DNA of 64,000 bases from Thermoanaerobaculia bacterium (GCA_036380735.1 DASVEE010000015.1:48954-112953), one strand, 5' to 3'. Positions 191 to 61,312 are shown, counted from the stretch's first letter. The notes: generated from the sequence alone by a model not told the origin. Program-made: numbers and translations.

Positions 191-784
191 ATGTCCAGTG
201 ATGATCGGCAGACCTCTGTTCGTCGTTCCCAGTCCGTCGTGGCGGATGACACGCCGGCAGCTTCGCCCGCGGCCAGTCTGGATCTCGTGCACGCGGCTCC
301 GCCGGCGCTCGCGGAGCCGGAGATGCTCGTCAAGGGGCTGCGCCAGTTGCAGCGGCGCATCCCTGAGTTCACGCAACTGACGCTGCAGGAAAAGCAGTCG
401 CGCGCACGAGTCGCGAACCTCGATCCTGCTTTCATCGAGAGTGGCCTGCACGCCGCCGAAGCCTGGCCGGACAGCCAGCACTTCATGGGCCGAACGGCCG
501 AGGAGCTGCGGGAGGAAGAGGCGGAGATCCGCCGGTGGGACGCGGTGGTCGTGGAGTTCCGCGCGATCACCGACGGCATCGCCGCCGCGAACCTCAAACG
601 GAAGCACCGCCTCGGCACGACCATCCTGGACATCTACTACAGGCTCGGCAGTCACCTCCGGCGTCATAGCGACCCCGAGGATGTGCCCCTGCGTCCCTAT
701 TACGAGAACATGAAACGGGCGTATCAGCAGTCGCAGCGCCCGCGGAAGCGTAAGAAGAAGGAAGAACCGGGCGGGGACCGATAG
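191..784 (+). CDS. hypothetical protein
   Basis: 197-aa ORF with a basic C-terminus (RPRKRKKKEE) and no recognisable motifs; sits just upstream of the histidine kinase. Confidence 0.4.
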   Translation: MSSDDRQTSVRRSQSVVADDTPAASPAASLDLVHAAPPALAEPEMLVKGLRQLQRRIPEFTQLTLQEKQSRARVANLDPAFIESGLHAAEAWPDSQHFMGRTAEELREEEAEIRRWDAVVVEFRAITDGIAAANLKRKHRLGTTILDIYYRLGSHLRRHSDPEDVPLRPYYENMKRAYQQSQRPRKRKKKEEPGGDR

Positions 785-886
785 GACGAATGGGACCTAT
801 GGGACAAATAGGACGAATGGGACAGCAGCGCTGCGGCCTTGTCCTATCCGTCCTATAAGTCCCATCCGTCCTGTCCGTCCCATCGT
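774..886. repeat. Tandem-repeat-armed hairpin element (GGACnnATN / GTCCTAT-type 8-9-nt units), core CAGCGCTGCGG
   Basis: Left arm ataggacgaatgggacctatgggacaaataggacgaatgggacag, right arm gtcctatccgtcctataagtcccatccgtcctgtccgtcccatcg. Confidence 0.8.
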
Positions 887-921
887 GCTTTGCGCATCCC
901 GTCCCCGTCGTTGGCGCGTCG

Positions 922-2100
922 TTGATCCCGGCTTCACACGCGCCCGCTAATGTCGGCGGCGTGACGGATTTCCCCATCATCGGCGCGCTGGTTACGAACC
1001 ACCGCGCCTTCGTACCGCAGACGCCGGTGCCGACCGTGGCCGCGGAGTTCTCGCGCGATCCGCAGCTCGAGGCCGTGGCCATCGTCGACGGCGCGAAGCC
1101 GGCCGGGCTCGTGACTCGCGGCAAGTTCCTCTCCACGGTGTACCGCCAGTTCGGCTGGGAGATCTACCAGCGCAAGACGATCGCGGCGGTCGCCGAAAAG
1201 GCGCCGCTCGTGCTGCCCGACTGGTCGCGCCTCGACGCGGCGCTCAATCTCGCACTGCAACGGCAGTCGCAGGACCTGTATGACGAAGTGGTCGTCATCC
1301 GCGATGATGGCTCTTTCGCAGGGCTGCTGTCCGTGCGGCAGATGGTGCTGCAGCAGTCGCAGGCGCTGGCCACCGCCATCGTGCAGAAAGAGCTGGCCAC
1401 GGTGCGGGCGCAGGAGCTCGAAGAAGTCGGCCGCATCAAGTCGCAGTTCCTGGCGAACGTGACGCACGAGCTGCGATCGCCGGTGAACGCCATCATCGAG
1501 CTGGCGGAGCTGCTGCGCATGAAGCCCGATGAGCACCGCCTGTCGCTGCTCACCTCCTGCGCCACCAATCTGCGCAGCGTCATCAACAACATGCTGGAGC
1601 TGTCGAAGATCGAGGCGGGCAAGATGCGCGTGGTGAACGACCAGTTCGACCTCGTGCCGCTCCTGCACGAGGTCGCGGAGACGGCGCGCGTGCTCGCCGG
1701 CCGCAAACCGGTCGAGGTCCTCGTCTCCACCGGCGGCCGGACCGTGCCGGTCGTCTCCGACGAGGTGAAGGTGCGGCAGATCGTGCTCAACCTCGCCAGC
1801 AACGCGGTGAAGTTCACCGACGCCGGCCGCATCGTCCTGCAGCAGACCAGTATCGAAGACACCGTAGCGATCGCCGTCATCGACACCGGCATCGGCATCC
1901 GTCCGGACGATCTGGCGAAACTCTTCCTCCCGTTCTCGCAGCTCGAAGACGCCCACACCAAGACGCGCGAAGGCACCGGTCTCGGACTGGCCATCGTCCG
2001 GGAGCTCGCCCAGCTCCTCGGCGGCCGCGTGGCCGTCGAGAGCCGTCATGGCCACGGCAGCCGTTTCACGCTTCACCTACCGAAGGAGATTCCGCAATGA
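922..2100 (+). CDS. Sensor histidine kinase, cytoplasmic, with CBS-like N-terminal sensor region
   Basis: HisKA H-box (FLANVTHELRSPVNAI) and HATPase_c G-boxes (GTGLGLAIVRELAQLLGG); no transmembrane segment; stop overlaps the start of the downstream receiver gene (ATGA). The true start may differ. Confidence 0.85.
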   Translation: MIPASHAPANVGGVTDFPIIGALVTNHRAFVPQTPVPTVAAEFSRDPQLEAVAIVDGAKPAGLVTRGKFLSTVYRQFGWEIYQRKTIAAVAEKAPLVLPDWSRLDAALNLALQRQSQDLYDEVVVIRDDGSFAGLLSVRQMVLQQSQALATAIVQKELATVRAQELEEVGRIKSQFLANVTHELRSPVNAIIELAELLRMKPDEHRLSLLTSCATNLRSVINNMLELSKIEAGKMRVVNDQFDLVPLLHEVAETARVLAGRKPVEVLVSTGGRTVPVVSDEVKVRQIVLNLASNAVKFTDAGRIVLQQTSIEDTVAIAVIDTGIGIRPDDLAKLFLPFSQLEDAHTKTREGTGLGLAIVRELAQLLGGRVAVESRHGHGSRFTLHLPKEIPQ

Positions 2101-2465
2101 TCCGTCAGCGCATTCTCGTCATCGACGACGACCCGGCTCACCTCGATTCCACCCGCGGCATTCTGGAGGCCGAGGGGTATGAGGTGGCGACGCACGACCA
2201 GCCGTTCGGCTCGACCAACGCCATCGTCAAGTTCCAGCCCGACCTCGTCCTGCTCGACGTGAACATGCCCGGCCTGTCGGGCGACAAGCTCGCGGACGTT
2301 TACCGCGCGAACGCCCGGACGCGGAGCACGCGCGTGATGCTCTATTCGTCGAACGACGAAGATGCGTTGCGTGAGGCGTCGAAGCGCCTGCAGCTCGACG
2401 GCTACATCTGCAAGGGGAGCCCGGCCACGCTGCGTATCCGGGTGGCGTCGGTGCTCTCGCGCTGA
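2097..2465 (+). CDS. Response regulator, single receiver domain (CheY-like)
   Basis: ILVIDDDP...D...LLDVNMPGLSG receiver motifs; 122 aa; translationally coupled to the kinase. Confidence 0.85.
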   Translation: MIRQRILVIDDDPAHLDSTRGILEAEGYEVATHDQPFGSTNAIVKFQPDLVLLDVNMPGLSGDKLADVYRANARTRSTRVMLYSSNDEDALREASKRLQLDGYICKGSPATLRIRVASVLSR

Positions 2466-2469
2466 TCTG

Positions 2470-3486: not shown

Positions 3487-3637
3487 GGCCACACCCCCCC
3501 GGAGACACCCCTGCCAGTACACCGCGCATTACTACGAGAGGACATTCCAGGGATCGACTTAGCAACGGCACTGCCAAGGTGCACAGGGAAAGCGGCAGAT
3601 GGGGGGTATGAATAAAAAATGACACCAAAGAGAACGA

Positions 3638-3758
3638 GAGGACGAATAGGACAGATAGGACGAATAGGACCTATAGGACCGCCGCCCAAACCCCGCGCGG
3701 AACTGCCCATGGGACCCCGGTGTCCTATTGGTCCTATGGGTCCTATTCGTCCTATCGT
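3638..3758. repeat. Tandem-repeat-armed hairpin element (GAATAGGAC 9-mer arms)
   Basis: gaggacgaataggacagataggacgaataggacctataggac ... gtcctattggtcctatgggtcctattcgtcctatcgttcc. Confidence 0.8.
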
Positions 3759-3855
3759 TCCCCCTTCCCCCAAACCGGAACAATCGTTCGGTCTCCCCGG
3801 TTGATAAAGCCGTACCGATTTGGTACTGTTTCGCTCCTTCTGCCGCGGACTGACC

Positions 3856-4325
3856 ATGCTGAAGATCTCTAAACTCACGGATTACGGCCTGCTGGCTGCT
3901 GTCTACCTCGCCAAAAAAACCGGCGAAGTGGTGGCCGCTCGGGAGATTGCCGAGTTCTACCATCTGCCGGCCCCGGCGGTGACGAAGGTGCTGAAGACGC
4001 TCCATGCGGGCGGTCTCGTCCATTCGCACCGCGGCGTCGGCGGCGGTTATTCTTTTGATGGCGACGCCGAGCTCGTCACGCTCGGCCAGCTCATCGAAGT
4101 CCTCGAAGGACCGTGGGATCTCGTCGAGTGCGAGTCCGTCGACGATACCGGTCACGCGGTCTGCGCGATCCGGGTCGCCTGCCCCTCGCGGCGCTTTCTC
4201 TCCGGGATCAACCGCGCCATCAAGGGCGCCTTCGATCAGGTCACCCTCGGCGACCTCACGCGCGGCAGCATGCCGTTCACCGTCATCGACAAGCAGCGCC
4301 TCAACGGCGCGGAGTCCTCCATCTC

Positions 4326-4329
<4 letters not shown>
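3856..4329 (+). CDS. Rrf2-family transcriptional regulator (IscR/SufR-like), likely regulator of the suf operon
   Basis: [19 protein letters not shown]... Rrf2 helix-turn-helix; three Cys ([12 protein letters not shown]) as in Fe-S-binding Rrf2 regulators; immediately upstream of and overlapping sufB. Confidence 0.75.
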
Positions 4330-5768
<1,439 letters not shown>

Positions 5769-5777
5769 GAAAGAACA

Positions 5778-6535
<758 letters not shown>

Positions 6536-6539
<4 letters not shown>

Positions 6540-7744
6540 CGACCGCCCTCACCAACGAACTGATGAACGATCTTCGCGAGCGGGGAGCGGAGCGCTTCTC
6601 GCAGCTCGGCTGGCCGACGACGCGCATCGAGGAATGGCGCTACACGAACCTGGCGAACGTCGCCAAGGTGGCGTGGCGCAGCGATGACGCGCCGAAAGTG
6701 ATCGAGACGCCGGCGACGCTGGCGGGTCGCGCGACCGTCGAGCTGCTCTTCGTCAACGGACGCCTCGTGCGCACGACGGGCGAAGCGCTGCAGCCGGTCG
6801 AGGCCGAGCGCATCGGCAGCGTCGCGGACTTCGAGAGCCACGCCATGATCGCGCTCAACGCCGCGGAGATGCAGGACGGCGCGCGCTTCCGCGTGCCGGA
6901 CAACGCGGTCGTCGACGGCTTCATCCATCTCCTGTTCGTCGGCAGCGGCGACGGGATCTGGTCGCATCCGCGCAACGTCATCGACGTCGGGCGGAACGCG
7001 CAGGTGCGCATCGTCGAGACCTACGTCGGCAGCGGTGAGTACTTCACGAACGCCGTGACGGAGCTGCTCGCCGCCGAAGGCGCCGTCGTCGATTACACGA
7101 AGGTGGTGTGCGAGGCGGAGAGCGCCACGCACGTCGGCAGCGTGCACGTGCGGCAGGAGCGCTCGTCGAGCGTGACGCTGCACAACATGTCGATCGGCGG
7201 CGCGCTGATCCGCAACGACGTCTACGCGGCCCTGACCGGTGAGGGCGCGAGCGTCGCGCTCGAAGGCCTCTTCGCCGGCGCCGGGAAGCAGCACATCGAC
7301 AACCACACCGTCATCGATCACGTCAGCCCGCACTGCGACAGCCTGGAGCTCTACAAGGGCGTCCTCGACGACCAGGCGCGCGGCGTGTTCGACGGGCGCA
7401 TCATCGTCCGTCCGAACGCCTCGAAGACGGCCTCGAAGCAGTCGAACCACAACCTCCTGCTGTCGGAAACGGCGATCGTCGATTCGAAGCCGACGCTGGA
7501 GATCCACAACGACGACGTGAAGTGCAACCACGGCTCGACGATCGGACAGATCGACGAGGAAGCGCTCTTCTACCTCCGCTCGCGCGGCATCGGCGAGGCG
7601 GAAGCACGCAACCTCCTGGTCTACGCCTTCGCGGCCGAAGTCGTCGACCGCATCAAGATCGAGCCGGTGCGCGAGCAGATCCGGCGCGCGTTGTTCCGCG
7701 CGATTCCGGCGCGCCTGCCGGAGCGCAGGGGAGGTCCACGATGA
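6536..7744 (+). CDS. sufD: Fe-S cluster assembly protein SufD
   Basis: SufB paralog lacking the Cys-rich region, positioned between sufC and sufS; stops and starts overlap. Confidence 0.8.
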
Positions 7745-8985
7745 GCAGCGTTCTCGAACAGAGTGTGACGTACGACGTCGAAGCGATCCGCCGCGACTTT
7801 CCGATCCTCGGCGAACCGATTCACGGCAAGCCGCTCGTCTATCTCGACAACGCCAACACGACGCAGAAGCCGTCGGCGGTGATCGAGCGCATCGACCACT
7901 ACTACCGTCACGAGAACTCCAACGTGCACCGCGGCGTGCATTACCTCTCCGAGGTGGCGACGGCGCAGTACGAAGGGGCGCGGACGACGGTGCGCCGCTT
8001 CATCAACGCCCGCGACGAGAAAGAGATCGTCTTCACGCGCGGCACCACGGAGTCGATCAACCTCGTGGCGCAGACGTGGGGACGCCGCCACATCGGCGAA
8101 GGGGACGAGATCCTCATCTCCGCGATCGAGCACCACTCGAACATCGTGCCGTGGCAGATGCTCTGCCAGGAGAAGGGCGCGACGCTGCGCGTGATCCCGG
8201 TGAGCGACGAAGGGGAACTGCTCCTCGAGGAGTACGAGCGGCTGCTGAATCCGCGCGTGAAGCTGGTTGCCATCGGCCATGCGTCGAACGCGCTCGGCAC
8301 CATCAATCCGCTGGCGCGCATGATCCCGCTGGCGCACGCGAACGGCTCGCTCGTCCTCGTCGACGGCGCGCAGGGCGTGCCGCACATGACGGTCGACGTG
8401 CAGGCGCTCGACTGCGACTTCTACGCGTTCTCCGCGCACAAGGTGTACGGGCCCACCGGCACCGGTGTGCTGTACGGTAAGGAAGCGCTGCTCGAGGCGA
8501 TGCCTCCGTGGCAGGCGGGCGGCGACATGATCCTCTCCGTCACGTTCGAGAAGACGACGTACAACGCGCTGCCGTACAAGTTCGAAGCGGGCACGCCGAA
8601 CATTCAGGGCGTCATCGCTCTCGGTGCCGCGCTCGATTACGTGAGCGGCGTCGGGCTCGACGCGATCGCCGCGTACGAGAACGAGGTGCAGCAGTACGCG
8701 ACCGCGCGGCTGCGCGAGGTCGACGGCGTCCGCCTCATCGGCACGGCGAAACAGAAAGCGGCGGTGATCTCCTTCGTCCTCGAGGGCGTGCATCCGCACG
8801 ACATCGGCACGATCCTGGATAAGGAAGGGATCGCCATCCGTACCGGGCACCACTGCGCGCAGCCGCTGATGATGCGCTTCAAGGTGCCGGCGACGGTGCG
8901 CGCGTCGTTCGGGCTGTACAACACGAAGGAAGAGGCCGATGCGCTCGTCGCCGGCCTCCACAAAGTCGTCGAGGTATTTCGCTGA
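7741..8985 (+). CDS. sufS: Cysteine desulfurase SufS (class II aminotransferase, PLP-dependent)
   Basis: MSSVLEQ... start overlapping the sufD stop; PLP-lysine context (FYAFSAHKVYGPTG) and active-site Cys (RTGHHCAQ). Confidence 0.9.
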   Translation: MSSVLEQSVTYDVEAIRRDFPILGEPIHGKPLVYLDNANTTQKPSAVIERIDHYYRHENSNVHRGVHYLSEVATAQYEGARTTVRRFINARDEKEIVFTRGTTESINLVAQTWGRRHIGEGDEILISAIEHHSNIVPWQMLCQEKGATLRVIPVSDEGELLLEEYERLLNPRVKLVAIGHASNALGTINPLARMIPLAHANGSLVLVDGAQGVPHMTVDVQALDCDFYAFSAHKVYGPTGTGVLYGKEALLEAMPPWQAGGDMILSVTFEKTTYNALPYKFEAGTPNIQGVIALGAALDYVSGVGLDAIAAYENEVQQYATARLREVDGVRLIGTAKQKAAVISFVLEGVHPHDIGTILDKEGIAIRTGHHCAQPLMMRFKVPATVRASFGLYNTKEEADALVAGLHKVVEVFR

Positions 8986-9437
8986 TGTCGTCGGACTTAC
9001 GGGAGCTGTACCAGCAGGTCATCCTCGATCACAACCGCAATCCGCGGAACTACCGTGAGATGGCGGACGCGACGCGCCGCATCGAGGGCTACAACCCTCT
9101 CTGCGGCGATCACTACACGGTGTTCCTGAGCCTCGAGGGCGACACGATCCGCGAAGTCTCCTTCACCGGCAGCGGTTGCGCCATCTCCAAAGCCTCCGCC
9201 TCGGTCATGAGCACGACGGTGAAGGGGAAGACGAAGGAAGAGGCGACGCGCCTCTTCGACACGTTCCACCGCCTCGTCACCGGCGACGCGAGCGGACTGA
9301 GCGCGGCAGATCTCGGCCGCCTCGCGGCGTTCTCAGGAGTGAGCGAGTTCCCCGCGCGCGTCAAGTGCGCGACGCTCGCCTGGCATACGCTCCGCACCGC
9401 CCTCGATGGGGATGCAGAGAGCGTGAGTACGGAGTGA
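8985..9437 (+). CDS. sufU: Zn-dependent sulfur transferase SufU (IscU/NifU-like)
   Basis: NPLCGD...GSGCAIS...C motifs typical of SufU/IscU. Confidence 0.85.
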   Translation: MSSDLRELYQQVILDHNRNPRNYREMADATRRIEGYNPLCGDHYTVFLSLEGDTIREVSFTGSGCAISKASASVMSTTVKGKTKEEATRLFDTFHRLVTGDASGLSAADLGRLAAFSGVSEFPARVKCATLAWHTLRTALDGDAESVSTE

Positions 9438-9515
9438 GGCTGTTTTCGGTTGTTGGTTTTCGGTTGTTGGTTAAAAGCCAAACCGAAAACCAACAACCGA
9501 AATCCGAAAACCAAC
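9438..9515. repeat. Tandem-repeat-armed hairpin element (GGTTTTC/GGTTGTT heptamer arms) between sufU and sufT
   Basis: ggctgttttcggttgttggttttcggttgttgg-ttaaaagcc-aaaccgaaaaccaacaaccgaaatccgaaaaccaac; ends 1 nt before the sufT ATG. Confidence 0.85.
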
Positions 9516-9516
9516 T

Positions 9517-10065
9517 ATGCGCGAAGAAGTCGAATTCAACCGCAACACCGAAGCCATCATGATCCCCAGCGGTGAGCGTGTCCTGGTCCCGAAAGGGGCG
9601 CAGGGAACGATCACGCAGGCTCTCGGCGGCACGTACACGCTCATCACGGACCGCGGCCTCATGGTCCGCATCTCCGGCCGCGAAGTGGAAGCGATCGGCA
9701 AGACGCCGGTCGACGCCCCGGAAGTGCAGCCGTCGGAGCTGACCCCCGAGAAGCTCGAAGAGCTGATCTGGGACGCGCTCCGCACCTGCTTCGACCCCGA
9801 GATCCCGGTCAACATCGTCGACCTCGGCCTGGTCTATCTCTGCGAGCTCAATGACGTGGAAGAAGGCGTCCGCGACGTCCACATCAAGATGACCCTCACC
9901 GCCCCCGGCTGCGGCATGGGCCCGGTCCTCGCCGGCGACGTGAAGTCGAAAGTCGAAGCCATCCCCGGCATCCGCACCGCCGAAGTGGAAGTGGTCTTCG
10001 ACCCGGTGTGGGATCGCAGCATGATGTCCGATGCAGCGAAGCTGCAACTGGGCATGATGTGGTGA
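9517..10065 (+). CDS. sufT: Fe-S assembly protein SufT (DUF59/MIP18 family)
   Basis: FDPEIPVNIVDLGLVY...TLTAPGCGMG DUF59 signature with the SufT-type N-terminal extension; separated from sufU by a repeat hairpin. Confidence 0.75.
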   Translation: MREEVEFNRNTEAIMIPSGERVLVPKGAQGTITQALGGTYTLITDRGLMVRISGREVEAIGKTPVDAPEVQPSELTPEKLEELIWDALRTCFDPEIPVNIVDLGLVYLCELNDVEEGVRDVHIKMTLTAPGCGMGPVLAGDVKSKVEAIPGIRTAEVEVVFDPVWDRSMMSDAAKLQLGMMW

Positions 10066-10068
10066 GTA

Positions 10069-10170
10069 GGGCTCAGGGGTCAGGGCTCAGGGCTCAGGGG
10101 CTGCGCTACACGGACGATGACCGCGCATAGCGGAGCCCCCTGAGCCCTGGGCCCTGAGCCCTGGGCCCCC
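10069..10170. repeat. Tandem-repeat-armed hairpin element (GGGCTCA heptamer arms), core GGCTGCGCTACACGG...CCGCGCATAGCGGAGCC
   Basis: gggctcaggggtcagggctcagggctcagggg ... cccctgagccctgggccctgagccctgggccc. Confidence 0.85.
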
Positions 10171-10188
10171 GTCCGCTACAATGCCGCC

Positions 10189-10752
10189 ATGCCTTTTTGC
10201 GCCAACTGCGGTAGCTCCACGCCCGAAGTGTCTTACGCGCTCTGCCCGAGCTGCGGCAATCCTACGAACGGGGCGCCGCGGCCGATGACGTACTCCCCGG
10301 CGGCGCCGCGGCCGGGCGTCAGCAAGTGGGTGTTCGTCATCGTCGGGCTCTTCCTGCTGATCCCGTTCATGGGGATCGTCGCGGCGATCGCCATCCCGAA
10401 CTTCATGACCGCCATGCAGCGCTCGAAGCAGAAGCGCACGATGGCCGATATCCGCGGCGTCGCGATGAAGGTCGAGGAGTACGGGCTGAAGCACAACCGT
10501 TTTCCGGCCGATCTCGAGAGCGCCGGAATCACCGCGCCGAACGACGCCTGGATGCGGCCGCTCTGGTATACCTGCGTGCCGCAGGTGGAGTGCACCGGCT
10601 ATGCAATCGTGAGCATGGGCGCCGATGGCGCGCTCGAGCATGAGGACATCGCCGAGTATGTGGACGCAGGCGGGACGACGAACTTCAATTCCGACATCGT
10701 CTTCATCGATGGTAAGTTCGTGCAGTATCCCAACACAGTCCAGGTGGAGTAG
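10189..10752 (+). CDS. Zinc-ribbon protein fused to a membrane-anchored pseudopilin-like (GspG-like) domain, no prepilin cleavage motif
   Basis: N-terminal CxxC...CxxC (CANCGS...CPSCGN); TM helix then AIAIPNFMTAMQRSKQ and C-terminal ...IVSMGADG, resembling the GspG/pilin fold; lacks the G/FTLIE leader. Confidence 0.55.
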   Translation: MPFCANCGSSTPEVSYALCPSCGNPTNGAPRPMTYSPAAPRPGVSKWVFVIVGLFLLIPFMGIVAAIAIPNFMTAMQRSKQKRTMADIRGVAMKVEEYGLKHNRFPADLESAGITAPNDAWMRPLWYTCVPQVECTGYAIVSMGADGALEHEDIAEYVDAGGTTNFNSDIVFIDGKFVQYPNTVQVE

Positions 10753-10764
10753 GGAAGGAGAGAT

Positions 10765-11271
10765 ATGTACTGTACGAATTGCGGAAATGATCGTCCCGAC
10801 AATCATCAGCCGTGTCCCAACTGCGGGGCCGTGCCTCAGCATGTGCCGCCGGCATCGCAGCAGCAGTTCGGCTCGTCGCCACAGGAGTTTGGCCAGGTAG
10901 GCAATCCCCAGGGGCAGTACACGCCGCCTCCTCCGCCGTCGATCGGTGGACCGGGGTACGGCGGGCCGGGTGGTCCCGGGATGCCGGTGGGCACGAAGGT
11001 GCCGAACTACCTCATCTTCTCGATCATCATGACGATCTGCTGCTGCCCCCTCGGCTCGCCGTTCGGGATCGTGTCGATCATCTTCGGCGCGTCGGTGAAC
11101 AGCAAGCTCGCCGCGGGTGACTACGCCGGGGCGCAGAAGGCGTCGGCCAACGCGCGCCTGTGGCTGATCATCGGTCTGGTGGTCGCGCTGGCCGGGATGA
11201 TCCTCTCGTTCTTCATGGGTGGTTTCGAGGACATCACGCGGTTGATGAATGAAGGCGCTGCGAATCGCTAG
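10765..11271 (+). CDS. Zinc-ribbon / proline-rich / DUF4190 (CD225-like) membrane protein
   Basis: CTNCGN...CPNCGA zinc ribbon, PPPPPS proline tract, then two-TM IFSIIMTICCCPLGSPFGIVSIIFG...LIIGLVVALAG region typical of DUF4190. Confidence 0.55.
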   Translation: MYCTNCGNDRPDNHQPCPNCGAVPQHVPPASQQQFGSSPQEFGQVGNPQGQYTPPPPPSIGGPGYGGPGGPGMPVGTKVPNYLIFSIIMTICCCPLGSPFGIVSIIFGASVNSKLAAGDYAGAQKASANARLWLIIGLVVALAGMILSFFMGGFEDITRLMNEGAANR

Positions 11272-11626
11272 CGTTGCGGCGGCCGCCCTCGTGGCGGCCG
11301 CCGGCGCGTGGGTGCTGTACCACAACGAACCGACGACCGCCGGGTTCTTCCCGGCGTGTCTATTCCGAAAGCTGACCGGCCTGGATTGCCCCGGCTGCGG
11401 CATGACGCGCGGCCTCTATCATCTGCTGCATGGGCACGTCTGGACGGCGTTCCGCTTCAACCCGCTGATGTTCGTGCTGCTGCCGCTCGTCCTGGGCGGC
11501 GGCACGATCGCCCTCCTGCGCGGTGAGCCACCCGCGCTGACGCGCAAGCCGTGGTTCGGCTGGACGGTGCTGTCGCTGATCTCGGTGTTCTGGGTGGTGC
11601 GGAACACGCCGTTGTGGCCGTTCTGA
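11249..11626 (+). CDS. DUF2752-family membrane protein
   Basis: LTGLDCPGCGMTRGLYHLLHG motif characteristic of DUF2752. Confidence 0.55.
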   Translation: MKALRIASVAAAALVAAAGAWVLYHNEPTTAGFFPACLFRKLTGLDCPGCGMTRGLYHLLHGHVWTAFRFNPLMFVLLPLVLGGGTIALLRGEPPALTRKPWFGWTVLSLISVFWVVRNTPLWPF

Positions 11627-11680
11627 CGGGCACCAGTGAAGAAAAAAGGGGACGGACCCGCGGCCCGTCCCCACATGCTG

Positions 11681-12034: not shown

Positions 12035-12043
12035 TGATCCTCC

Positions 12044-12484: not shown

Positions 12485-12522
12485 TGCAGCTCCTTCGTTC
12501 TTTCCGAGTTTGGACGTGAATT

Positions 12523-14184: not shown

Positions 14185-14213
14185 AGCGACCGTGGTGTGG
14201 TGAGGTGGGACAT

Positions 14214-14308
14214 GGTTTTCGGTTTTCGGTTTTTGGTTTCTGGTGCTGTGCTACGCGGTGAGTGTCGCGTGGCGCAGCACCGAAAACCAAAAACCGAAAA
14301 CCGAAAAC
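14214..14308. repeat. Tandem-repeat-armed hairpin element (GGTTTTC heptamer arms), core GCTGTGCTACGCGG...CGCGTGGCGCAGCAC
   Basis: ggttttcggttttcggtttttggtttctggtg ... caccgaaaaccaaaaaccgaaaaccgaaaac. Confidence 0.85.
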
Positions 14309-14311
14309 GCC

Positions 14312-15388: not shown

Positions 15389-15393
15389 TTGGC

Positions 15394-45384: not shown

Positions 45385-46311
<927 letters not shown>

Positions 46312-46317
46312 CAACCC

Positions 46318-46414: not shown

Positions 46415-46419
46415 ACTTC

Positions 46420-50418: not shown

Positions 50419-50449
50419 GGGGGCGAGGCGGACCTGCCGCCGATTGTAA

Positions 50450-51520
50450 TCACAGTACGGCTGAATACGCCGTAATGAGTCGGGTTGCCGCTGCCCGGTA
50501 GCCGAACTGTTGCGAGTGCGTCGCGACGCGCGTCCGAAACGGGCGAACCTCGTTCGCCAGCAGCGCCTGCACTTTCGTGGCGAGCGCTTGCGGTGTGGCG
50601 GCATCGGCGATGAGCCGCGGGGCGAGGTCGCCGAGGAGGGCGTGGACGCCGTCGAGTGGAAAGACGGCGGGAGGCACGCCACAGGCCATGGCTTCGAGGA
50701 TGGCTCGATGCCCCTCGTCGGAGCCGCGAGCGGTGAAGAGGAGCAGATCGGACGCGCGGTAGTGATCGGCGAGGTCGACCTCGTGATAGCCGGCCCAGAG
50801 GACGTCGGCGGCGATGTCGAGATCGCGCGCGAGCTGCTCGAGCACCGGGCGGTGAGGGCCGTGGCCGATGACCATCATGCGCGCGCTCGGCAGATCGCGC
50901 CGCACGAGCGCGAAGGTGCGCAGCGCGTCCTCGAAGCCGCGCCGCGGGGCGAGCTTGCCGATGACCGTGATGAGCTTCGCGTCGTCGGGGATGGCGTAGG
51001 TGACGCGGACGTCGTCGCCGTGGGGGTCGAACTGGCGGTGATCGAGCGGCGGCGGCGTGAAGACGGCGTCGCGTCCGCGGAGCGCCTCGGCATCGCGGAA
51101 GGTGTCGTTCACGACGCAGAGCAGTTTCGTGCGGCGGATCAGTGCGCGCGTGAAGGGATCGGTGCGAAGGACGCGCTCCGCGTGAAACGTGCGCGCGACG
51201 GTGACGCGGCGGCCGACGGCGAGGAAGCGGGCGAGCCAGTGGTCGTACGTGAGGTGCGCGTGGATGACGTCGAAGCCGTGACGGTCCAGCATCCGCCCGA
51301 GCGCCGCGAGCGTCCGCCGGAAGGCGAGCGGGTTCTGCGCCTTCTCGATCAGCGGGTGCGCGAAATCGTGGTGCGCGAGCTTCTCCTGCAGCTTGTAGCC
51401 GCCGACGTAGGCATAGTGCGCGTCGACGCCCGCCTCACGCAGAGCTTCAACCTCGGCGAAAGCCGGCGCCGCGGCCCCGGTCCAGCGGTTGCCGGCGGCC
51501 AGGTGGAGGATCTTCAACAC
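50450..51520 (-). CDS. Glycosyltransferase family 4
   Basis: GT-B C-terminal motif (...EGHRAILEAMACGVP...). Confidence 0.7.
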   Translation of the reverse strand: MLKILHLAAGNRWTGAAAPAFAEVEALREAGVDAHYAYVGGYKLQEKLAHHDFAHPLIEKAQNPLAFRRTLAALGRMLDRHGFDVIHAHLTYDHWLARFLAVGRRVTVARTFHAERVLRTDPFTRALIRRTKLLCVVNDTFRDAEALRGRDAVFTPPPLDHRQFDPHGDDVRVTYAIPDDAKLITVIGKLAPRRGFEDALRTFALVRRDLPSARMMVIGHGPHRPVLEQLARDLDIAADVLWAGYHEVDLADHYRASDLLLFTARGSDEGHRAILEAMACGVPPAVFPLDGVHALLGDLAPRLIADAATPQALATKVQALLANEVRPFRTRVATHSQQFGYRAAATRLITAYSAVL

Positions 51521-51646
51521 GCGCGCGCATTATGCCGGAGGCGTGCGGGGATGGAACCGATGGCCGAATGGGACACCACGATGTTGACCACGACACATCC
51601 TCCGTCCCATCGGCCTTTCCCGGCCGTCTGATATATTCGCGCGCCT

Positions 51647-51886
51647 ATGGCCGTCGATCAGGAACTGCTTGCCATCCTTGCCTGTCCCCTGTGCAAACAG
51701 GAAGTGAAAGTCGTCCCGCTCACGGAGGCGCGGCGCTCCGCGGTGCGCGACAAGTACCGGGAGAAGTTCCGCGGCGAGGAGCCGGTCGTCGAGAGCGGCC
51801 TCCGTTGCGTGAAGTGCGGCCGCGTCTACCCCGTCGTCAGCGACATCCCGATCATGCTCGTCGAAGAAGCCTACGATGAGCCCTGA
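51647..51886 (+). CDS. Trm112-family protein (DUF343)
   Basis: LLAILACPLCKQ...LRCVKCGRVYPVVSDIPIML zinc-ribbon-like Trm112 signature. Confidence 0.7.
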   Translation: MAVDQELLAILACPLCKQEVKVVPLTEARRSAVRDKYREKFRGEEPVVESGLRCVKCGRVYPVVSDIPIMLVEEAYDEP

Positions 51887-51889
51887 GTC

Positions 51890-53128
51890 GTGCTAGCCCG
51901 TCTGCTGGCTGGAGTCCGCTCGGAGTTCTCCAGCCTCAGTCCTCACGGTCTCCTCCGCTGGGCCGGCTTCTTCTACTTCGCCCACATCCTTTTCCAGGGA
52001 AAGATCGCCCCCTCGGAGCTCGGCGCGTTCTGGTTCATCTTCTGTCTCGGCTGGGCCATGGTCCGCCGCGAGGCGCGCTTCTCGTTCCACATCCTCTATT
52101 ACCCCCTGATCCTCTACGGCGTCGTCTCGACGCTCTCCGCCGCCGTGGCGCAGGCGCGCATCCACGCCGGGTTCGAGTCGATGCTGTGGTTCAAGATGCT
52201 GATCTTCCCGGCGGCGCTGATCTACTTCCGGATGATCCCGCGCGCGCGGACGCTCGCGCTCTGGGCGCACGTCGTGTTCGGCGTCGGCATCGCTGCGTGG
52301 GGCATCTTCGAGTTTCTCGTCCTCGACCAGCGCGATCTGGAGCGGCGGATCAACGGTCCGTCGACGCACGTCATGACGTTCTCCGGGCTGCTGCTGCCGC
52401 TGTCGCTGATGCTGCTGATGATGTGGTGGCACCAGCGGAAGGCGTGGCAACTCGCCGCCACCACGGTCATCTCCCTCACGCTCGTCCTGACGTTCACGCG
52501 CGGCGTCTGGCTCGGCTGGATCTTCGCGGTCGTCGTGATTCTCGTCGTCGCGCGGCCGCGGCTCCTCCTCTATCTGCCCATCGTGCTGGTGTGGGGACTC
52601 GTCCTCATGCCGTTGCCGGTCTTCGGACGGCTGATGTCGATCTTCGATCCGACGCAGTCGTCGAACCTGGACCGCATCCGGATGATCGAGGCGGGGGTGG
52701 AGATGATCCGCGACTATCCGGTCCTGGGTGTTGGGCCGGCGAACGTGAAAGAGGTGTATCCGCTCTACAAGAAGCCGGACGCTCCCCGCTTCCGGCCGCC
52801 GCACCTCCATAACAACGTGATCCAGCTCTGGGCGGAGCGCGGGGTCCTTGGGGTGGTCGCCTACATTCTGTTGCTCGCCCTCTTCCTCCGCGAATGCGCC
52901 AAGGGGTGGCGCTCGCCGGGGGAGGGGAGGATGTGGGCCGAGATCGGGATCGTCATCACGGCCGGCCTGACCTGGGCCGGGCTGTTCGAGTTCAACTTCG
53001 GCGATACCGAGGTCTTCTACATCATGCTCGACCTCTTCGCCCTCGTGATCGCTTCCATCGAGGCGAGCGCGGCCGAGCCGGTGAATGAACCGGCAGTAGG
53101 GGCTGTTCCGGCGATGTCAGCAGCTTAG
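51890..53128 (+). CDS. O-antigen ligase-family membrane protein (Wzy_C)
   Basis: Polytopic, with a large periplasmic loop containing TFTRGVWLGW; non-ATG start probable. Confidence 0.6.
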   Translation: MLARLLAGVRSEFSSLSPHGLLRWAGFFYFAHILFQGKIAPSELGAFWFIFCLGWAMVRREARFSFHILYYPLILYGVVSTLSAAVAQARIHAGFESMLWFKMLIFPAALIYFRMIPRARTLALWAHVVFGVGIAAWGIFEFLVLDQRDLERRINGPSTHVMTFSGLLLPLSLMLLMMWWHQRKAWQLAATTVISLTLVLTFTRGVWLGWIFAVVVILVVARPRLLLYLPIVLVWGLVLMPLPVFGRLMSIFDPTQSSNLDRIRMIEAGVEMIRDYPVLGVGPANVKEVYPLYKKPDAPRFRPPHLHNNVIQLWAERGVLGVVAYILLLALFLRECAKGWRSPGEGRMWAEIGIVITAGLTWAGLFEFNFGDTEVFYIMLDLFALVIASIEASAAEPVNEPAVGAVPAMSAA

Positions 53129-53160
53129 GGCCCTGAGCCCTCAGGCTGCCCGAAACCATT

Positions 53161-53781
53161 TTGATCATGCTTCCGTCGAAGAGCCGAGACATAGGGGAAA
53201 TGAAACACCTGAGCGATCAGGAGCTCATGCGAATCGTTCAGGCGGGTGACTACTCCCCGGCCTCCGAGATTTATGACCGCTACAGCGGACGGATCTACAA
53301 CTTCGCGTTTCGTTTCTTGAAGAATGCGGAAGCGGCCGAGGACGCGACGCAGGAAGTATTCGTCAAGATGATCAAACACGCCAATCAGTTCCACGGGGAT
53401 GCAAAGCTGTCGACGTGGCTCTTCTCCATCACGGCCAACTGGTGCCGTGACTACCTCCGGAAAGCGGACAACAAGTCGAAGGAATCCGACGATGTGCTGG
53501 TGACTCTGCCGGCGCCGGCGGAGAACGCGCCCGACCGCAATCTGGAGCAGAGGGAGAACGAGATCCGCGTACGCCGCGCGCTCCAGGAACTGACGCCGGA
53601 ACAGAGAGAAGCGATCCTGCTCTCACGCTACCAGGGACTGTCGTACGCCGAGATCGCGCAGATCGCCGGCTGTTCCGAAGGTGCCGTGAAGACGCGGGTT
53701 TTTCGCGCGATGGAAACATTGAAAAAAGCGCTCGCGGGTGACGTGGGCGGAGGTGCCCGATGGCCGATTGCAGTGCGCTGA
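53161..53781 (+). CDS. ECF-type RNA polymerase sigma factor
   Basis: Sigma-70 region 2 (FSITANWCRDYLRK) and region 4 (LSYAEIAQIAGCSEGAVKTRVFRA). Confidence 0.85.
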   Translation: MIMLPSKSRDIGEMKHLSDQELMRIVQAGDYSPASEIYDRYSGRIYNFAFRFLKNAEAAEDATQEVFVKMIKHANQFHGDAKLSTWLFSITANWCRDYLRKADNKSKESDDVLVTLPAPAENAPDRNLEQRENEIRVRRALQELTPEQREAILLSRYQGLSYAEIAQIAGCSEGAVKTRVFRAMETLKKALAGDVGGGARWPIAVR

Positions 53782-56432: not shown

Positions 56433-56515
56433 TCGGACGAATCGGACCTACAAGACCAAAGCGCCGGTCCCATTCGTCCTATAGGTCCTATTCGTCCTAT
56501 TTGTCCTATCGGACC
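56431..56515. repeat. Tandem-repeat-armed hairpin element (GGACGAAT / GTCCTAT-type arms)
   Basis: gatcggacgaatcggacctacaagacc-aaagcgccg-gtcccattcgtcctataggtcctattcgtcctatttgtcctatcggaccc. Confidence 0.75.
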
Positions 56516-58298: not shown

Positions 58299-58367
58299 TT
58301 TCCGCTTTCCGAGTGCCGGTTTCCGCGCTGCCTCGCGCCGGAAGCCGGCAATCGGAAATCCGAAATC
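58297..58367. repeat. Tandem-repeat-armed hairpin element (GATTTCC heptamer arms), core CGCTGCCTCGCG
   Basis: gatttccgctttccgagtgccggtttccg-cgctgcctcgcg-ccggaagccggcaatcggaaatccgaaatc; overlaps the stop of the kinase-like gene. Confidence 0.75.
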
Positions 58368-58379
58368 GAGGTAAGACAG

Positions 58380-59416: not shown

Positions 59417-59502
59417 GGATTGAGGATTGAGGATGGAGGATCGAGGAAAGAAGCCTGGCCATGCGCAGCGATCCTCAATCCTCGATTCCCGATCCTCAAT
59501 CC
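59417..59502. repeat. Tandem-repeat-armed hairpin element (GGATTGA heptamer arms), core AAGCCTGGCCATGCGCAGCG
   Basis: ggattgaggattgaggatggaggatcgagga ... atcctcaatcctcgattcccgatcctcaatcc. Confidence 0.85.
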
Positions 59503-59838
59503 TTTCTCGCCGAGGGCGTGGCCCACTTCAATTTCCACCGATTCTGGGAAGCACATGAATCGTGGGAGCACCTCTGGCTGGCCGACCGTACGCCCGAGCG
59601 CGAGTTCCTTCAGGGGCTGATCCAGCTCGCCGCGGCGTACTACCACGTGCGGCGCGGCAACGTCCGCGGGGCGACGCGCCTGTTCGACGCGGGGCTGCGC
59701 CGTCTCGATCCGTTTCCTCCCCGCTTCCGTGGCATCGACCGTGAGGCCGCGGTCGAGGCGGCGCGCCGTCACCGCGACGTGATCGCCGGCGGGGGCACCG
59801 TCCCGGCTGACGCTTTCCCGAAGCTTTCGATGACGTAA
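59461..59838 (+). CDS. DUF309-family protein; true start probably downstream of the repeat hairpin (about 59500)
   Basis: FN.HRFWEAHE.WE.LW......REFLQGLIQLAAAYYHVRRGNVRGATRL signature. Confidence 0.5.
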   Translation: MRSDPQSSIPDPQSFLAEGVAHFNFHRFWEAHESWEHLWLADRTPEREFLQGLIQLAAAYYHVRRGNVRGATRLFDAGLRRLDPFPPRFRGIDREAAVEAARRHRDVIAGGGTVPADAFPKLSMT

Positions 59839-59920
59839 GTTTTCCGCACCAGAGTCCGGCGGAAGGACTACAATCGAGCCCTCATCCAATCGAAAAATCC
59901 TCACGTCGCGAGGGTCAACA

Positions 59921-60937
59921 ATGCACGAGATCGATCAACGGGACCGGGAGCTTTTGAACGCTCTGCAGGGGGAGATTCCGCTCGTCTCGACGCCGTTTGC
60001 CGTTCTGGGCCAGCAGCTCGACATGTCCGAGAAAGAAGTGATCAAACGGACGGAGCGGCTCCGGCGCGAAGGACTGGTGCGGCAGGTCGCGCCTCAATTC
60101 GATTCGCGCGCGCTCGGCTACCGCTCGTGCCTCGTCGCGGCGCGCGTCATGCCCGAGCGCATCGACGATGCGGCGGCGACGATCGGCGCGCATCCCGGCG
60201 TCACCCAGAACTACCGGCGCAACAACGACTTCAACCTCTGGTTCACGATCCACGTCTCGCCGCTGTCGAAGCTGGGACTCGAAAAGACGATCGAGATCCT
60301 CGGCGATGAAGCCGAATGCCAGATCGTCCGGCCGCTGCCGACGCTGAAGCTCTTCAAGACCACGAGCGCCGACGGTGATTCGCACGCCGAGAACGAGACG
60401 CACGAGCCGGCGGCGCTGACGCCGCTGGAGATCGAATGCGTGCGCGTACTGCAGCGCGAAGTGCCGCTGCAACCGCGTCCCTTCGACGCGCTGGCGCGCG
60501 CCGCGAACCTCGGCGCCGACGAAGTGCTCGCGGCTGCACGCGCGCTGCTCGAGCGCGGCCAGATCCGCCGCTTCTCCGCCACGGTGACGCCGCGCAAGGC
60601 CGGCTTCGTCGCCAGCGCCATGGGCGTGTGGGCGGTGCCGCCCGACAGCGCCGACACGTTCGGCGCGCAACTCTCGCAGCACAAAGCGGTGTCGCACTGC
60701 TACCTCCGCCCGGTCTACGAGGACTGGCCGTACAACCTCTACACGACCGTGCATGGGCGCAGCGTCGATGAGTGCGAATCGATCATCAACGACCTCGCGA
60801 TCGACACCGGCCTGACGCAGAAGCAGGCGCTCTATCCGACCAAGGAGTACAAGAAGGCGCGTCTTCAGCTCTTCTCGCACGAGGCGGAAGAGTGGGAAGC
60901 GACGCACGCGTCGCGCCGCGCCGCCGCCGCGTCGTAG
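59921..60937 (+). CDS. Siroheme decarboxylase, fused NirD/NirL (AhbA/AhbB)-type Lrp/AsnC-like tandem domains
   Basis: Two repeats of LLNALQGEIPLV...PF..LG...SE.EV......L...G..R.....D..ALGY...L.A and AHP.VTQNYRR...FNLWF, typical of NirD/NirL/AhbA/AhbB. Confidence 0.65.
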   Translation: MHEIDQRDRELLNALQGEIPLVSTPFAVLGQQLDMSEKEVIKRTERLRREGLVRQVAPQFDSRALGYRSCLVAARVMPERIDDAAATIGAHPGVTQNYRRNNDFNLWFTIHVSPLSKLGLEKTIEILGDEAECQIVRPLPTLKLFKTTSADGDSHAENETHEPAALTPLEIECVRVLQREVPLQPRPFDALARAANLGADEVLAAARALLERGQIRRFSATVTPRKAGFVASAMGVWAVPPDSADTFGAQLSQHKAVSHCYLRPVYEDWPYNLYTTVHGRSVDECESIINDLAIDTGLTQKQALYPTKEYKKARLQLFSHEAEEWEATHASRRAAAAS

Positions 60938-60941
60938 CCGC

Positions 60942-61259
60942 TTGTTCGAGTCGTTTCAGGAGCCGCAGCCGGCCGAGCGCCTCCGCGCCGTGGCCGCGGC
61001 TCCGGTCGCGGCGTTTCTCCTCGCGCAGTTCTACTTCTCGCTGTACCCGCTGCTGAGCCGCGTGCCCGCGTGGCTGTTCTGGCTCATCGTGGCCATTCTC
61101 TTCGCGGGCACCGCGTGGGGCTTCTTTGCTACCGCGCGCATCGTGGTCAGACACGGCCGCAGCCTTGGGTGGCGGGGGATCGTCTGGCTGGTCTTCGCGG
61201 TGCTGGCGTCGCTGGTCTGCGGTTGGCTGCTGCTGTCGTTGACGCTGCCGTGGTTGTAG
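60942..61259 (+). CDS. Small hypothetical membrane protein (3 TM)
   Basis: Hydrophobic helices only. Confidence 0.35.
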   Translation: MFESFQEPQPAERLRAVAAAPVAAFLLAQFYFSLYPLLSRVPAWLFWLIVAILFAGTAWGFFATARIVVRHGRSLGWRGIVWLVFAVLASLVCGWLLLSLTLPWL

Positions 61260-61274
61260 GCCCGGGGGACGCAT

Positions 61275-61312
61275 CTGTCCTATACGTCCCATACGTCCTA
61301 TAGGTCCTATTA
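61275..61312. repeat. Single-arm GTCCTAT-type tandem array
   Basis: tgtcctatacgtcccatacgtcctataggtcctatt. Confidence 0.6.

Follow-up and report, generated by a model that had tools for sequence, protein, structure and literature searches.

Why does almost every spacer between the genes of a bacterial genome segment contain a hairpin built from short tandem repeats? The question is raised by a 64,000-nucleotide (nt) stretch of DNA from a soil Thermoanaerobaculia bacterium (Acidobacteriota; GCA_036380735.1, DASVEE010000015.1:48954-112953), which was analyzed over its whole length and is hereafter called the window. A preliminary description of this stretch reported about 25 mostly intergenic hairpins, in which one arm is a tandem array of 7-9-nt units and the other arm is its inverse. 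Here we compare these elements with loci of related and distant genomes, and we describe cassettes in which arrays of the same units enclose a gene for a small four-helix-bundle protein. The window hairpins are probably miniatures of such cassettes that lack the open reading frame (ORF). Inverted heptamer arrays and hairpin-borne S23p genes have each been seen before; what is new is the extreme, ORF-less, multi-family form in the window and the connection between the two.

Hairpin elements of the window

The G+C content of the window is approximately 65%. Tandem Repeats Finder (TRF) detected approximately 45 short arrays with a period of 7, 8, or 9, which, together with an inverted-repeat search and folding, gave 26 hairpin elements, all of them intergenic, in good agreement with the initial count. 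Of these, 21 are two-armed hairpins and three are mostly one-armed copies (beginning at 20876, 24315, and 61277); the other two are a mini copy (51560-51615) and a weak one with reversed polarity (58300-58368). The median number of units per arm is 4.4, and 35 of 45 arms contain 4-5 units. In the inverted-repeat search, the arms pair over 23-57 nt with 72-100% complementarity and are separated by 0-52 nt. The folding energy (minimum free energy) ranges from -39 to -90 kcal/mol across the window elements. When 200 dinucleotide shuffles were used as the reference, 19 of 20 folded elements exhibited z-scores between -4.9 and -12, the exception being 19225-19335 (z = -1.45), which confirms that the arms pair on folding. 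Their symmetry is less than the perfect one first described, because the complementarity has the range given above, one-armed copies exist, and the two arms of one element in a close relative have drifted to different units (see below).

The units listed in the preliminary description were correct. Eleven copies belong to the family of ATAGGACNN 9-mers, four to GAATTGA/GGATTGA, three to GAATTTC/GAATGAA, and two each to GAACGCA, GGTTTTC/GGTTGTT, and GTTGTCC; GGGCTCA is represented by a single copy, and one further element is weak. The claim of a conserved GC-rich core holds in part. GCGCAGC/GCTGCGC occurs in 9 of the 26 elements (3.1 expected by length), but the cores of related genomes differ from those of the window, and the core is thus not a family-wide feature.

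A gene map based on third-position GC was made for this analysis; it is approximate, and the elements were taken into account when a few of its start codons were chosen. On this map, elements occupy 26 of the 30 intergenic gaps that measure 40 nt or more (~87%), and 57% of the DNA in these gaps is element sequence. The occupied gaps are co-directional (18 of 21), convergent (3 of 4), and divergent (5 of 5), and gaps inside the suf operon are also filled. Several copies abut start codons, as previously noticed, with the element end and the start codon at 9512/9517, 44043/44054, 45378/45394, and 46419/46420. Rfam at gathering thresholds gave no match in the window, including none to rRNA, and no tRNA or tmRNA genes were found in it. 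An exact-match look-up of one window protein returned no record. In agreement with the preliminary description, the elements are not a CRISPR array, because their units are 7-9 nt long and contiguous, whereas CRISPR repeats are 23-50 nt long and separated by unique spacers of similar length.

Four-helix-bundle cassettes at an orthologous site

The comparison set consisted of 80 loci from a SufD scan of species-representative genomes, 72 from Thermoanaerobaculia and 8 from an outgroup (Terriglobia, Bryobacteraceae, and Bacteroidota). When approximately 2 Mb of loci was searched for periodic inverted arrays separated by up to 1.6 kb, two pairs emerged. The arrays of one pair (locus L036) are in divergent orientation. 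In the other (L057, on a chromosome-scale Thermoanaerobaculia contig), (GAATTGA)x5 and its inverse enclose a 112-amino-acid ORF on the minus strand (142-480), which matches TIGR02436 with 81 bits against a cut-off of 24.

We compared full-length cassettes in L057 and in the loci of its homologues in five further Thermoanaerobaculia genomes (L213, L221, L224, L227, and L230). In all six genomes, the four-helix-bundle gene sits between a LigB gene and a LigB/L-PSP gene. The arms that enclose the ORF are 19-39 nt long with 91-100% complementarity, and the loop between them measures 336-455 nt. The arrays are composed of GAATTGA/GAATTGT or GGATTGA units; the 5' array reaches the start codon and the inverse array follows the stop codon. 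At the junction between the array and the start codon, GGATTGAGGA provides the Shine-Dalgarno sequence of the cassette ORF. In L230, a hairpin-forming GC-rich segment similar to the window cores (GGCCTCCGCGCTACTCCGGTGGCGCAC) is located between the 5' array and the ribosome-binding site of the ORF.

These loci are syntenic with positions 42537-53781 of the window, which share the genes for aldehyde dehydrogenase, LigB, LigB/L-PSP, cyclase, GT4, Trm112, Wzy, and an ECF sigma factor. At the position of the cassette, the window has just a 102-nt hairpin without an ORF (46318-46419). The inner units of this hairpin (GAATGAC GAATTGA GAAAG ... TTCTTCG) match the arrays of L227 and L057 on both sides. 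The cassette units GAATTGA and GGATTGA are also the units of the window elements that begin at 38456, 43965, 45300, and 59417. In particular, the GAATTGA unit of 38456-38545 forms the arrays around the ORFs in L057, L213, and L227, and the GGATTGA unit of 45300-45378 forms those in L221, L224, and L230. A four-helix-bundle ORF is enclosed at the orthologous site in at least six relatives; in the window, the only trace of such an ORF is a 40-nt relic at 3760-3800, next to a different element (3632-3760). A profile hidden Markov model of the four-helix-bundle proteins detected no further copies in all loci compared, and a scan of viral contigs with the alignment of these proteins gave no match. 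Judged from their sequences, the window hairpins match the cassettes in units, architecture, and polarity, and in one case in the exact genomic site.

The 9-mer family and the suffix-domain genes

A second connection was found for the most abundant unit family. The 9-mer copies have common termini, GGGGAACGATAGGAC ... GTCCTATCGTTCCCC. A metagenome scan with the 15-mer GGGGAACGATAGGAC gave mostly chance matches, and 9-mer arrays were present in 4 of 120 loci. Two of these four loci, L117 and L144, encode an identical protein. The L117 gene (4611-5237) has 9-mer arrays around and inside it, and its product matches TIGR02436 (four helix bundle protein), TIGR04258 (four helix bundle suffix domain), and, weakly, PF05635 (23S rRNA-intervening sequence protein). 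In L117 and L201, the suffix-type genes (TIGR04258) are flanked by ATAGGACNN arrays. The 9-mer "terminus" belongs to the suffix-domain gene, of which it forms the 3' end of the coding sequence (..A R G N D R T N R T..). The relic in the window (3760-3800, minus strand) is the C-terminus of such a gene (TERLFRFGGRGNDRTNRT in translation) and runs into the right arm of the element at 3632-3760; in a tblastn comparison with the L117 protein, it exhibited 69% identity over 26 amino acids (E=0.001).

The suffix-type protein has >8000 homologues, which are 75-91% identical among the matches listed (P0001-P0120). The few organism-named homologues among the matches listed come from metagenome-assembled genomes (MAGs) of Nitrospirae, Pyrinomonadaceae, and Ignavibacteria. 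The high identity of these proteins suggests recent horizontal spread under strong constraint. The gene (x) is wedged into unrelated operons, namely ortB/x/oraS, carA/x/rlmL, and cas7/x/cas4. In three metagenomic contigs with GC contents of 0.70, 0.65, and 0.48, the ATAGGAC/GTCCTAT motif is kept beside the start codon, the stop codon, or both. In the 70% GC contig, the motif also persists within the reading frame (AATAGGTCCTATGAGTCCTATCAGTCCTAT, which encodes NRSYESYQSY) by the use of AAT, AGG, and TAT codons, which are atypical at this GC content and therefore argue for a nucleotide-level constraint on the motif. A suffix copy on a Prevotella plasmid, which was the sole match of a plasmid tblastn search, is followed by a related array of TAGGAAnnn 9-mers. 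In the three contigs, the window 9-mer unit is thus the cis motif that "four helix bundle suffix" cassettes conserve.

Related arrays in other phyla and in known systems

A profile of the cassette proteins matches PDB entry 2RLD with E = 2e-27, which is the closest solved relative and has five chains in the entry. Homologues of 2RLD were found in three contexts: araD/x/araA in Bacteroidaceae (contig GC 0.42), aminotransferase/x/DAHP synthase in Bacteroidaceae (0.53), and hsdS/x/hsdR in Anaerolineae (0.48). Each of these ORFs is bracketed by inverted arrays of approximately four CAATTGA-type heptamers, with arms of 31-36 nt and 86-97% complementarity. CAATTGA is one base away from the GAATTGA of Thermoanaerobaculia. 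The 5' array of a Bacteroides-type ORF (L233, 736-799) also has a short local inverted partner, so that both local pairing and pairing to the distal 3' array are open to it; such alternative structures might control translation of the ORF.

Similar arrangements are present in published data. The Coxiella 23S rRNA intervening sequence (IVS) has a 28-bp terminal stem that is cut by RNase III, and three GACAGAT units, the number of which varies between strains, precede the start of its S23p gene; horizontal transfer was suspected (PMC4990558). In Xanthomonas, repeat #15 (GGGAATC x4) between XCC0517 and XCC0516 overlaps the start codon of XCC0516 (PMC4692102 supplement), which encodes an S23p-family protein that was crystallized as a pentamer of four-helix bundles. 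For both organisms, the published data show just a tandem heptamer array at the start of the ORF. Taken together, the suffix type is accompanied by TAGGAC 9-mers, the 2RLD/L057 type by [GC]AATTGA, XCC0516 by GGGAATC, and the Coxiella S23p by GACAGAT. Unit type thus goes with four-helix-bundle subfamily across phyla in the sequences compared. In our literature search, which covered few subscription journals, the Coxiella IVS paper was the only one found to link four-helix-bundle genes to heptamer arrays.

The window elements share features with several known systems. Like the 23S rRNA IVSs of Coxiella and Leptospira (S23p, PF05635), they have a long terminal inverted-repeat stem of at least 20 bp, and the stem contains tandem short repeats, every window arm being composed of tandem 7-9-mers. 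The full-length cassettes of the relatives additionally resemble the IVSs in having tandem heptamers directly before a four-helix-bundle ORF and in encoding the same protein family. In contrast to the IVSs, which occupy helix 9, 25, or 45 of 23S rRNA, the window copies lie in spacers between protein genes, lack an ORF, and occur by the dozen in 64 kb with many unit families. Excision by RNase III has been shown for IVSs only.

Each Xanthomonas genome has 70-75 convergent array pairs (Rehm et al. 2015, PMC4692102); S23/four-helix-bundle proteins are not mentioned in the text of that paper. Like the window elements, the GGGAATC pairs contain approximately four heptamers with the G-rich strand inward, are inverted and intergenic, and vary in length between species. 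They differ in that a genome holds a single unit type, at ~186 arrays in 5 Mb, and they were read as G-quadruplex formers with no link drawn to four-helix-bundle genes. In Geobacter metallireducens, arrays of 3-5 units of 8 nt (GTTGCTYN), 9 nt (TCTCCGTSY), or 7 nt (MTYCTGA) are paired on opposite strands at variable distances (Aklujkar et al. 2009, PMC2700814). These classes 1-3 resemble the window in that one genome holds several classes of 7-9-nt units, but they number tens of copies rather than thousands and were read as IHF/HU sites, with neither the hairpin nature nor ORFs analyzed; the supplements of the paper do not mention S23 or four-helix genes. The window elements have the properties of such inverted heptanucleotide simple sequence repeat pairs, that is, 3-5 inward-G-rich units of 7-9 nt with an inverted partner in an intergenic position. 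An octamer hairpin in L056 (9087-9165) has units, GGTTGCTG, that fit the Geobacter class 1 consensus GTTGCTYN. PF05635 proteins are homologous to Avd of diversity-generating retroelements (2GSC vs 4DWL; PMC10053308), and proteins of this type have been noticed scattered in cas operons. Avd and the cassette ORF products belong to the same protein superfamily, but no reverse transcriptase, template repeat, or variable repeat is present near the cassettes examined.

Taxonomic range, polarity, and turnover

Nearly all of the closer SufD loci bear the names of Thermoanaerobaculia or Acidobacteriota soil MAGs. A purpose-written detector of periodic-arm hairpins, which recovers 14 of the window's elements, found such hairpins in approximately 45 of the 72 Thermoanaerobaculia loci and in none of the 8 outgroup loci. 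Units that recur across related genomes are GTGCTGA, GTTGTCG, GGTTGGC, GAAGGCA, GAACGCA, AGGGCCG, AGTCGGC, GTTGTTA, and ATAGGACNN, and the period is mostly 7 and at times 8 or 9. The 5' arm contains more G than C in 82 of 85 periodic hairpins (999 G vs 421 C), compared with 54 vs 38 for non-periodic hairpins. Because a hairpin composed of an arm, a core, and the reverse complement of the arm reads identically from either strand, the polarity reflects a genuine constraint and cannot be a strand effect.

The closest SufD locus to the window is L001 (88% amino-acid identity), which is syntenic with window 3775-17195 at 73-90% nucleotide identity; the turnover described below was seen at 83-89%. 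Opposite the GGTTTTC element at 14214-14308, L001 has a GTTGTCC element, in the center of which a 9-mer element is nested, and opposite the CGTTGTC element at 15396-15473, it has a GGTTGGC element. The L001 counterpart of 10068-10168 holds two more elements nested in its center. An L001 element at 15443-15494 has no counterpart at window 11626-11681. The sufU-sufT gap contains an element in both genomes, and the two L001 arms carry different units; they have drifted apart, which indicates that arms also evolve by homogenization within an arm and that symmetry is not strictly kept. Gain, loss, replacement, and nesting of hairpins thus take place within the time over which congeners diverge. The copy-number variation between strains, the lack of which the preliminary description would have counted against its interpretation, is clearly present, both as presence or absence and as turnover of unit families.

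Two other hairpins were noticed in this comparison. Between sufB and sufC, L001 has a 144-nt hairpin (9080-9224) without clear tandem units, at a site where the window spacer is 9 nt (5768-5777); this hairpin probably belongs to a second type of small inserted element in the lineage. An ordinary short GC-rich hairpin (GGGGACGG..CCGTCCCC) in the convergent gap at window 11648-11673 is kept in L001 (~15520-15545), where a tandem-unit element stands just upstream of it; none is present at the window site.

Individual elements and neighboring features

The 9-mer family is described first. The hairpin at 775-884 (TRF; GGACNNATR x4.4 / GTCCYATNN x4.9; -69.2 kcal/mol, z -7.55) overlaps the upstream stop codon with its left end. 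The hairpin at 3632-3760 (inverted repeat I8, arms 39 nt, 90%; z -7.53) occupies the divergent gap upstream of the suf operon regulator. The hairpin at 32169-32297 (I1, arms 57 nt, 77%; z -8.53) fills a convergent gap and has the termini GGGGAACGATAGGAC / GTCCTATCGTCCCC. Two further hairpins are located at 36958-37022 (-42.1 kcal/mol, z -8.57) and 40481-40584 (I19, arms 30 nt, 87%; z -7.28), and the TAG stop of the gene upstream of the latter lies in the first unit. The one-armed copy at 20876-20912 (TRF and terminus search) has a right arm of GTCCTATNN x4 ending in GTCCTATCGTCTCCC. The copy at 24315-24364 (TRF and fold; terminus GTCCTATCGTTCCCC) has five right units and two left units at ~24283-24300, and that at 61277-61310 (TRF and fold) has a right arm only. 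The mini hairpin at 51560-51615 (sequence and fold) is of the 9-mer type (GAATGGGAC ... GTCCCATCG) with approximately one unit per arm, and the asymmetric 9-mer element at 56434-56509 (TRF and fold) has approximately 3 left and 4.8 right units.

Elements with GAATTGA or GGATTGA units include 38456-38545 (TRF; core GGCTTCGCTGG..GCGCAGC; z -8.43), the right arm of which overlaps the end of a convergent gene, and 43965-44043 (TRF; z -9.31), which ends 10 nt before the next start codon. Their GGATTGA counterparts are 45300-45378 (I20, arms 29 nt, 90%; core GGCTTCGCTGG...GCGCAGCC; z -8.64), upstream of the LigB gene, and 59417-59503 (I7, arms 50 nt, 72%; GCGCAGC in the core; z -4.87). GAACGCA units form the hairpin at 41287-41408 (six copies and an inner GAATTGA unit; I2, arms 47 nt, 89%; z -11.88) and the outer part of 46318-46419 (inner GAATGAC/GAATTGA; I10, arms 39 nt, 82%; z -7.34), which fills the gap between LigB and LigB/L-PSP. 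The GAATTTC/GAATGAA hairpins are found at 22951-23086 (I9, arms 43 nt, 81%; z -8.47) with convergent genes on either side, at 26703-26805 (I21, arms 25 nt, 100%; core GGCTGCGCT; z -7.87), and in the divergent gap at 27916-28010 (I15, arms 32 nt, 91%; z -6.08).

The remaining hairpins are those of alternating GTTTTCG/GTTGTTG in the sufU-sufT gap (9442-9512; TRF; z -7.75), which ends 5 nt before the sufT start and has a decayed L001 orthologue, of GGGCTCA (10068-10168; I14, arms 32 nt, 91%; core GGCTGCGCT...AGCGGAGCC; -90 kcal/mol, z -8.33), of GGTTTTC (14214-14308; I5, arms 43 nt, 91%; z -12.05), of CGTTGTC (15396-15473; I11, arms 33 nt, 94%; z -8.71), and of GTTGTCC with GCGCAGC in the core (17924-18013; I12, arms 34 nt, 91%; z -9.39). 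A weak, degenerate 8/9-mer element lies in a divergent gap at 19236-19330 (TRF; z -1.45). The weak CGGAAAT hairpin at 58300-58368 (TRF; -40.3 kcal/mol) has a C/T-rich 5' arm, that is, reversed polarity, and its membership is doubtful.

Arrays overlap the 3' ends of host genes at window 775-784, 38538-38545, and 40481-40485 and at L117 4561-4606. What such arrays contribute is either a stop codon (ATAGGAC contains TAG, and GAATTGA contains TGA) or an odd protein tail. The PLP-enzyme gene upstream in L117 ends with EIGPVGPLGPIGMKE, a tail that comes from the overlapping array, and the N-terminal extension of P0070 is array-encoded. At window 26898-27875 (minus strand), a 325-aa ORF with a third-position GC of 0.62, compared with ~0.9 in its neighbors, has hairpin elements on both sides and may be foreign or mis-called. 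The region at 61990-62715 also has lowered third-position GC and contains two small tandem ORFs (~62230-62420 and 62420-62713) without a hairpin element; it looks like an acquired module, possibly a toxin-antitoxin pair.

Proposed origin of the hairpins

The explanation that we favor, with a probability of roughly 60%, is that the hairpins are ORF-less miniatures of hairpin-bounded four-helix-bundle cassettes; a cognate pentameric protein, stems that serve as RNase III substrates, and spread at the DNA level would complete this picture. A full-length cassette would consist of a 5' array of 4-5 tandem 7-9-nt units, a small four-helix-bundle gene (TIGR02436/PF05635, S23p/23S-rRNA-IVS/Avd-like), and the inverted array, and the ORF-containing 23S rRNA IVSs would be the same kind of element seated in an rRNA helix. 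Each unit family may serve as the nucleic-acid site recognized by its own four-helix-bundle subfamily, with perhaps one unit for each pentamer protomer. The 4-5 units typical of an arm fit such predicted pentamer sites without proving them. The earlier idea that a cognate protein may read the repeats was right in spirit, and a concrete candidate is now the pentameric four-helix-bundle protein encoded between such arrays in the relatives. Because RNase III cuts duplex RNA of approximately two helical turns with little sequence specificity, transcribed stems of 20-50 bp could be cut by it, by analogy with the Coxiella IVS. In that case, the elements would act in the cell chiefly through the processing of mRNA between cistrons or as 3'-end hairpins. 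Spread and turnover would occur at the DNA level, as largely selfish intergenic elements that favor spacers and the centers of existing hairpins.

Several observations weigh against this explanation. There is no four-helix-bundle gene in the window, and among the 80 SufD loci only L057 has one; therefore, a trans-acting protein in this genome is unproven. No transposase, reverse transcriptase, or other mobility enzyme was identified, and no target-site duplication was seen. Arm mismatches compatible with G:U pairing number 14 on the transcribed strand and 13 on the other, and thus there is no sign of selection for sense-strand RNA structure. The families tied directly to four-helix-bundle genes (GAATTGA/GGATTGA and the 9-mers) account for 15 of the 26 elements, or 20 of 26 with the addition of GAATGAA/GAATTTC and GAACGCA, two families that include GAATTGA units or are similar to them; GGTTTTC, GTTGTCC, and GGGCTCA are linked to the cassettes by analogy of architecture alone. 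The core of 46318-46419 was considered as a remnant of the ends of a deleted ORF, but local alignments were no better than those of shuffles except for the array matches. Because the window has no four-helix-bundle ORF and the relatives have one at the orthologous site, we treat the window copies as probable ORF-less derivatives and not as full members; in the reverse order, ORFs could have been inserted into pre-existing hairpins.

Alternative explanations

The most serious competitor, which we consider unlikely, regards the hairpins as primarily host structures. The arrays would be born by slippage, symmetrized by intra-hairpin repair or conversion, and kept as factor-independent terminators, attenuators, or mRNA-stabilizing 3' hairpins, and the four-helix-bundle genes would be unrelated selfish ORFs that insert in the loops. 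The homogenization within arms visible in the L001 sufU-sufT element, the change of unit family at orthologous sites, the great stability of the stems, and the filling of most co-directional and convergent gaps (18/21 and 3/4) would all be expected of such structures. However, the divergent gaps (5/5) and the gaps internal to the suf operon are filled as well, and the T-tract is missing on both sides, with 0-6 T and no runs in the 12 nt after either arm; the stems measure 23-57 bp against 5-15 bp in intrinsic terminators. In line with the preliminary description, the elements are thus not intrinsic terminators. A G:U bias on the sense strand is lacking as well, and L227 and other relatives pack the same genes without any spacer or hairpin. 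Slippage in the host would not lead one to expect the recurrence of identical units, and even of an identical order of unit variants, in different species, the conservation of the 9-mer termini, or the co-variation of unit types with four-helix-bundle subfamily across phyla.

Still less probable are conventional non-autonomous transposable elements, either MITEs (miniature inverted-repeat transposable elements) or doublets of repetitive extragenic palindromes (REP) of the REPIN type, moved by a transposase or a REP-associated tyrosine transposase (RAYT) encoded elsewhere in the genome. REP sequences, bacterial interspersed mosaic elements (BIMEs), REPINs, and MITEs resemble the window elements in being short, intergenic, hairpin-forming, and polymorphic between relatives, and the high copy number, the terminal inverted symmetry, the nesting, and the conserved termini of the 9-mer family are also in line with this origin. 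The window elements differ in having arms that are tandem arrays of a variable unit and in lacking a conserved GTAG/CGTC head, which occurs within 18 nt of just 6 of 44 element ends; the claim that they are not canonical REP/BIME elements is therefore upheld. A target-site duplication is not recognizable between filled and empty sites of the window and L001, where the flanks are too diverged to define boundaries. No RAYT (IS200/IS605-like TnpA) gene was noticed among the window ORFs scanned, a scan that included no RAYT-directed search. A RAYT or transposase partner was not found; the only ORF identified between such arms is that of the four-helix-bundle protein, which the L057 pair, one of the two from the long-span search, encloses. 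The conserved terminus of the 9-mers is really coding sequence of the suffix-domain gene.

Very unlikely, finally, are binding-site arrays for nucleoid-associated or global regulators (IHF/HU-type, as proposed for Geobacter) or G-quadruplex-forming repeats (as proposed for Xanthomonas): the architecture matches Geobacter classes 1-3, and the L056 octamer fits class 1 (PMC2700814), and the convergent G-rich polarity is that of Xanthomonas (PMC4692102), but at least 8 unrelated unit sequences in one 64-kb window would require many regulators, an 87% gap occupancy is not regulon-like, G3 runs are confined to the GGGCTCA family so that G-quadruplexes cannot be general, and in Xanthomonas itself an array overlaps the start of the S23p gene XCC0516.

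Implications

A broader interpretation, which we put forward only tentatively and regard as less likely than not, extends the cassette explanation to all such repeats. Tandem 7-9-nt arrays and S23p/Avd-like proteins may constitute a single unrecognized class of selfish element, whose gene would reside in the loop of a tandem-repeat hairpin. The pentamer would recognize the array of its own cassette, in roughly one unit for each protomer and as single-stranded RNA or DNA, and thereby favor spread or maintenance. If so, ORF-less copies can colonize most intergenic spacers of a genome. Such a class would explain the origin of ORF-containing rRNA IVSs, the long-noted excess of heptanucleotide repeats in Xanthomonas, Geobacter, cyanobacteria, and Beggiatoaceae, and the scattered four-helix-bundle genes wedged in operons, cas operons included.

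Among bacterial genomes, S23p/IVP four-helix-bundle genes are frequent, as are heptanucleotide tandem repeats, and neither has been explained. The window is an extreme case, in which gene-less hairpins of several unit families fill ~87% of the intergenic spacers in an abundant uncultured soil lineage, and its relatives provide a natural series from ORF-containing to ORF-less forms at one orthologous site. If the link between the hairpins and the cassettes is true, there would also be a practical effect: short-read assemblies would be broken, and gene callers would be misled, since host proteins acquire stop codons and odd tails at the C-terminus, for example GPIGPIG, from the arrays. The link would further provide a source for rRNA intervening sequences and predict RNase III cuts in the operon transcripts of these bacteria at almost all gene boundaries. 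For the large orphan family of four-helix-bundle proteins, it would provide a testable function, that of a sequence-specific repeat binder.

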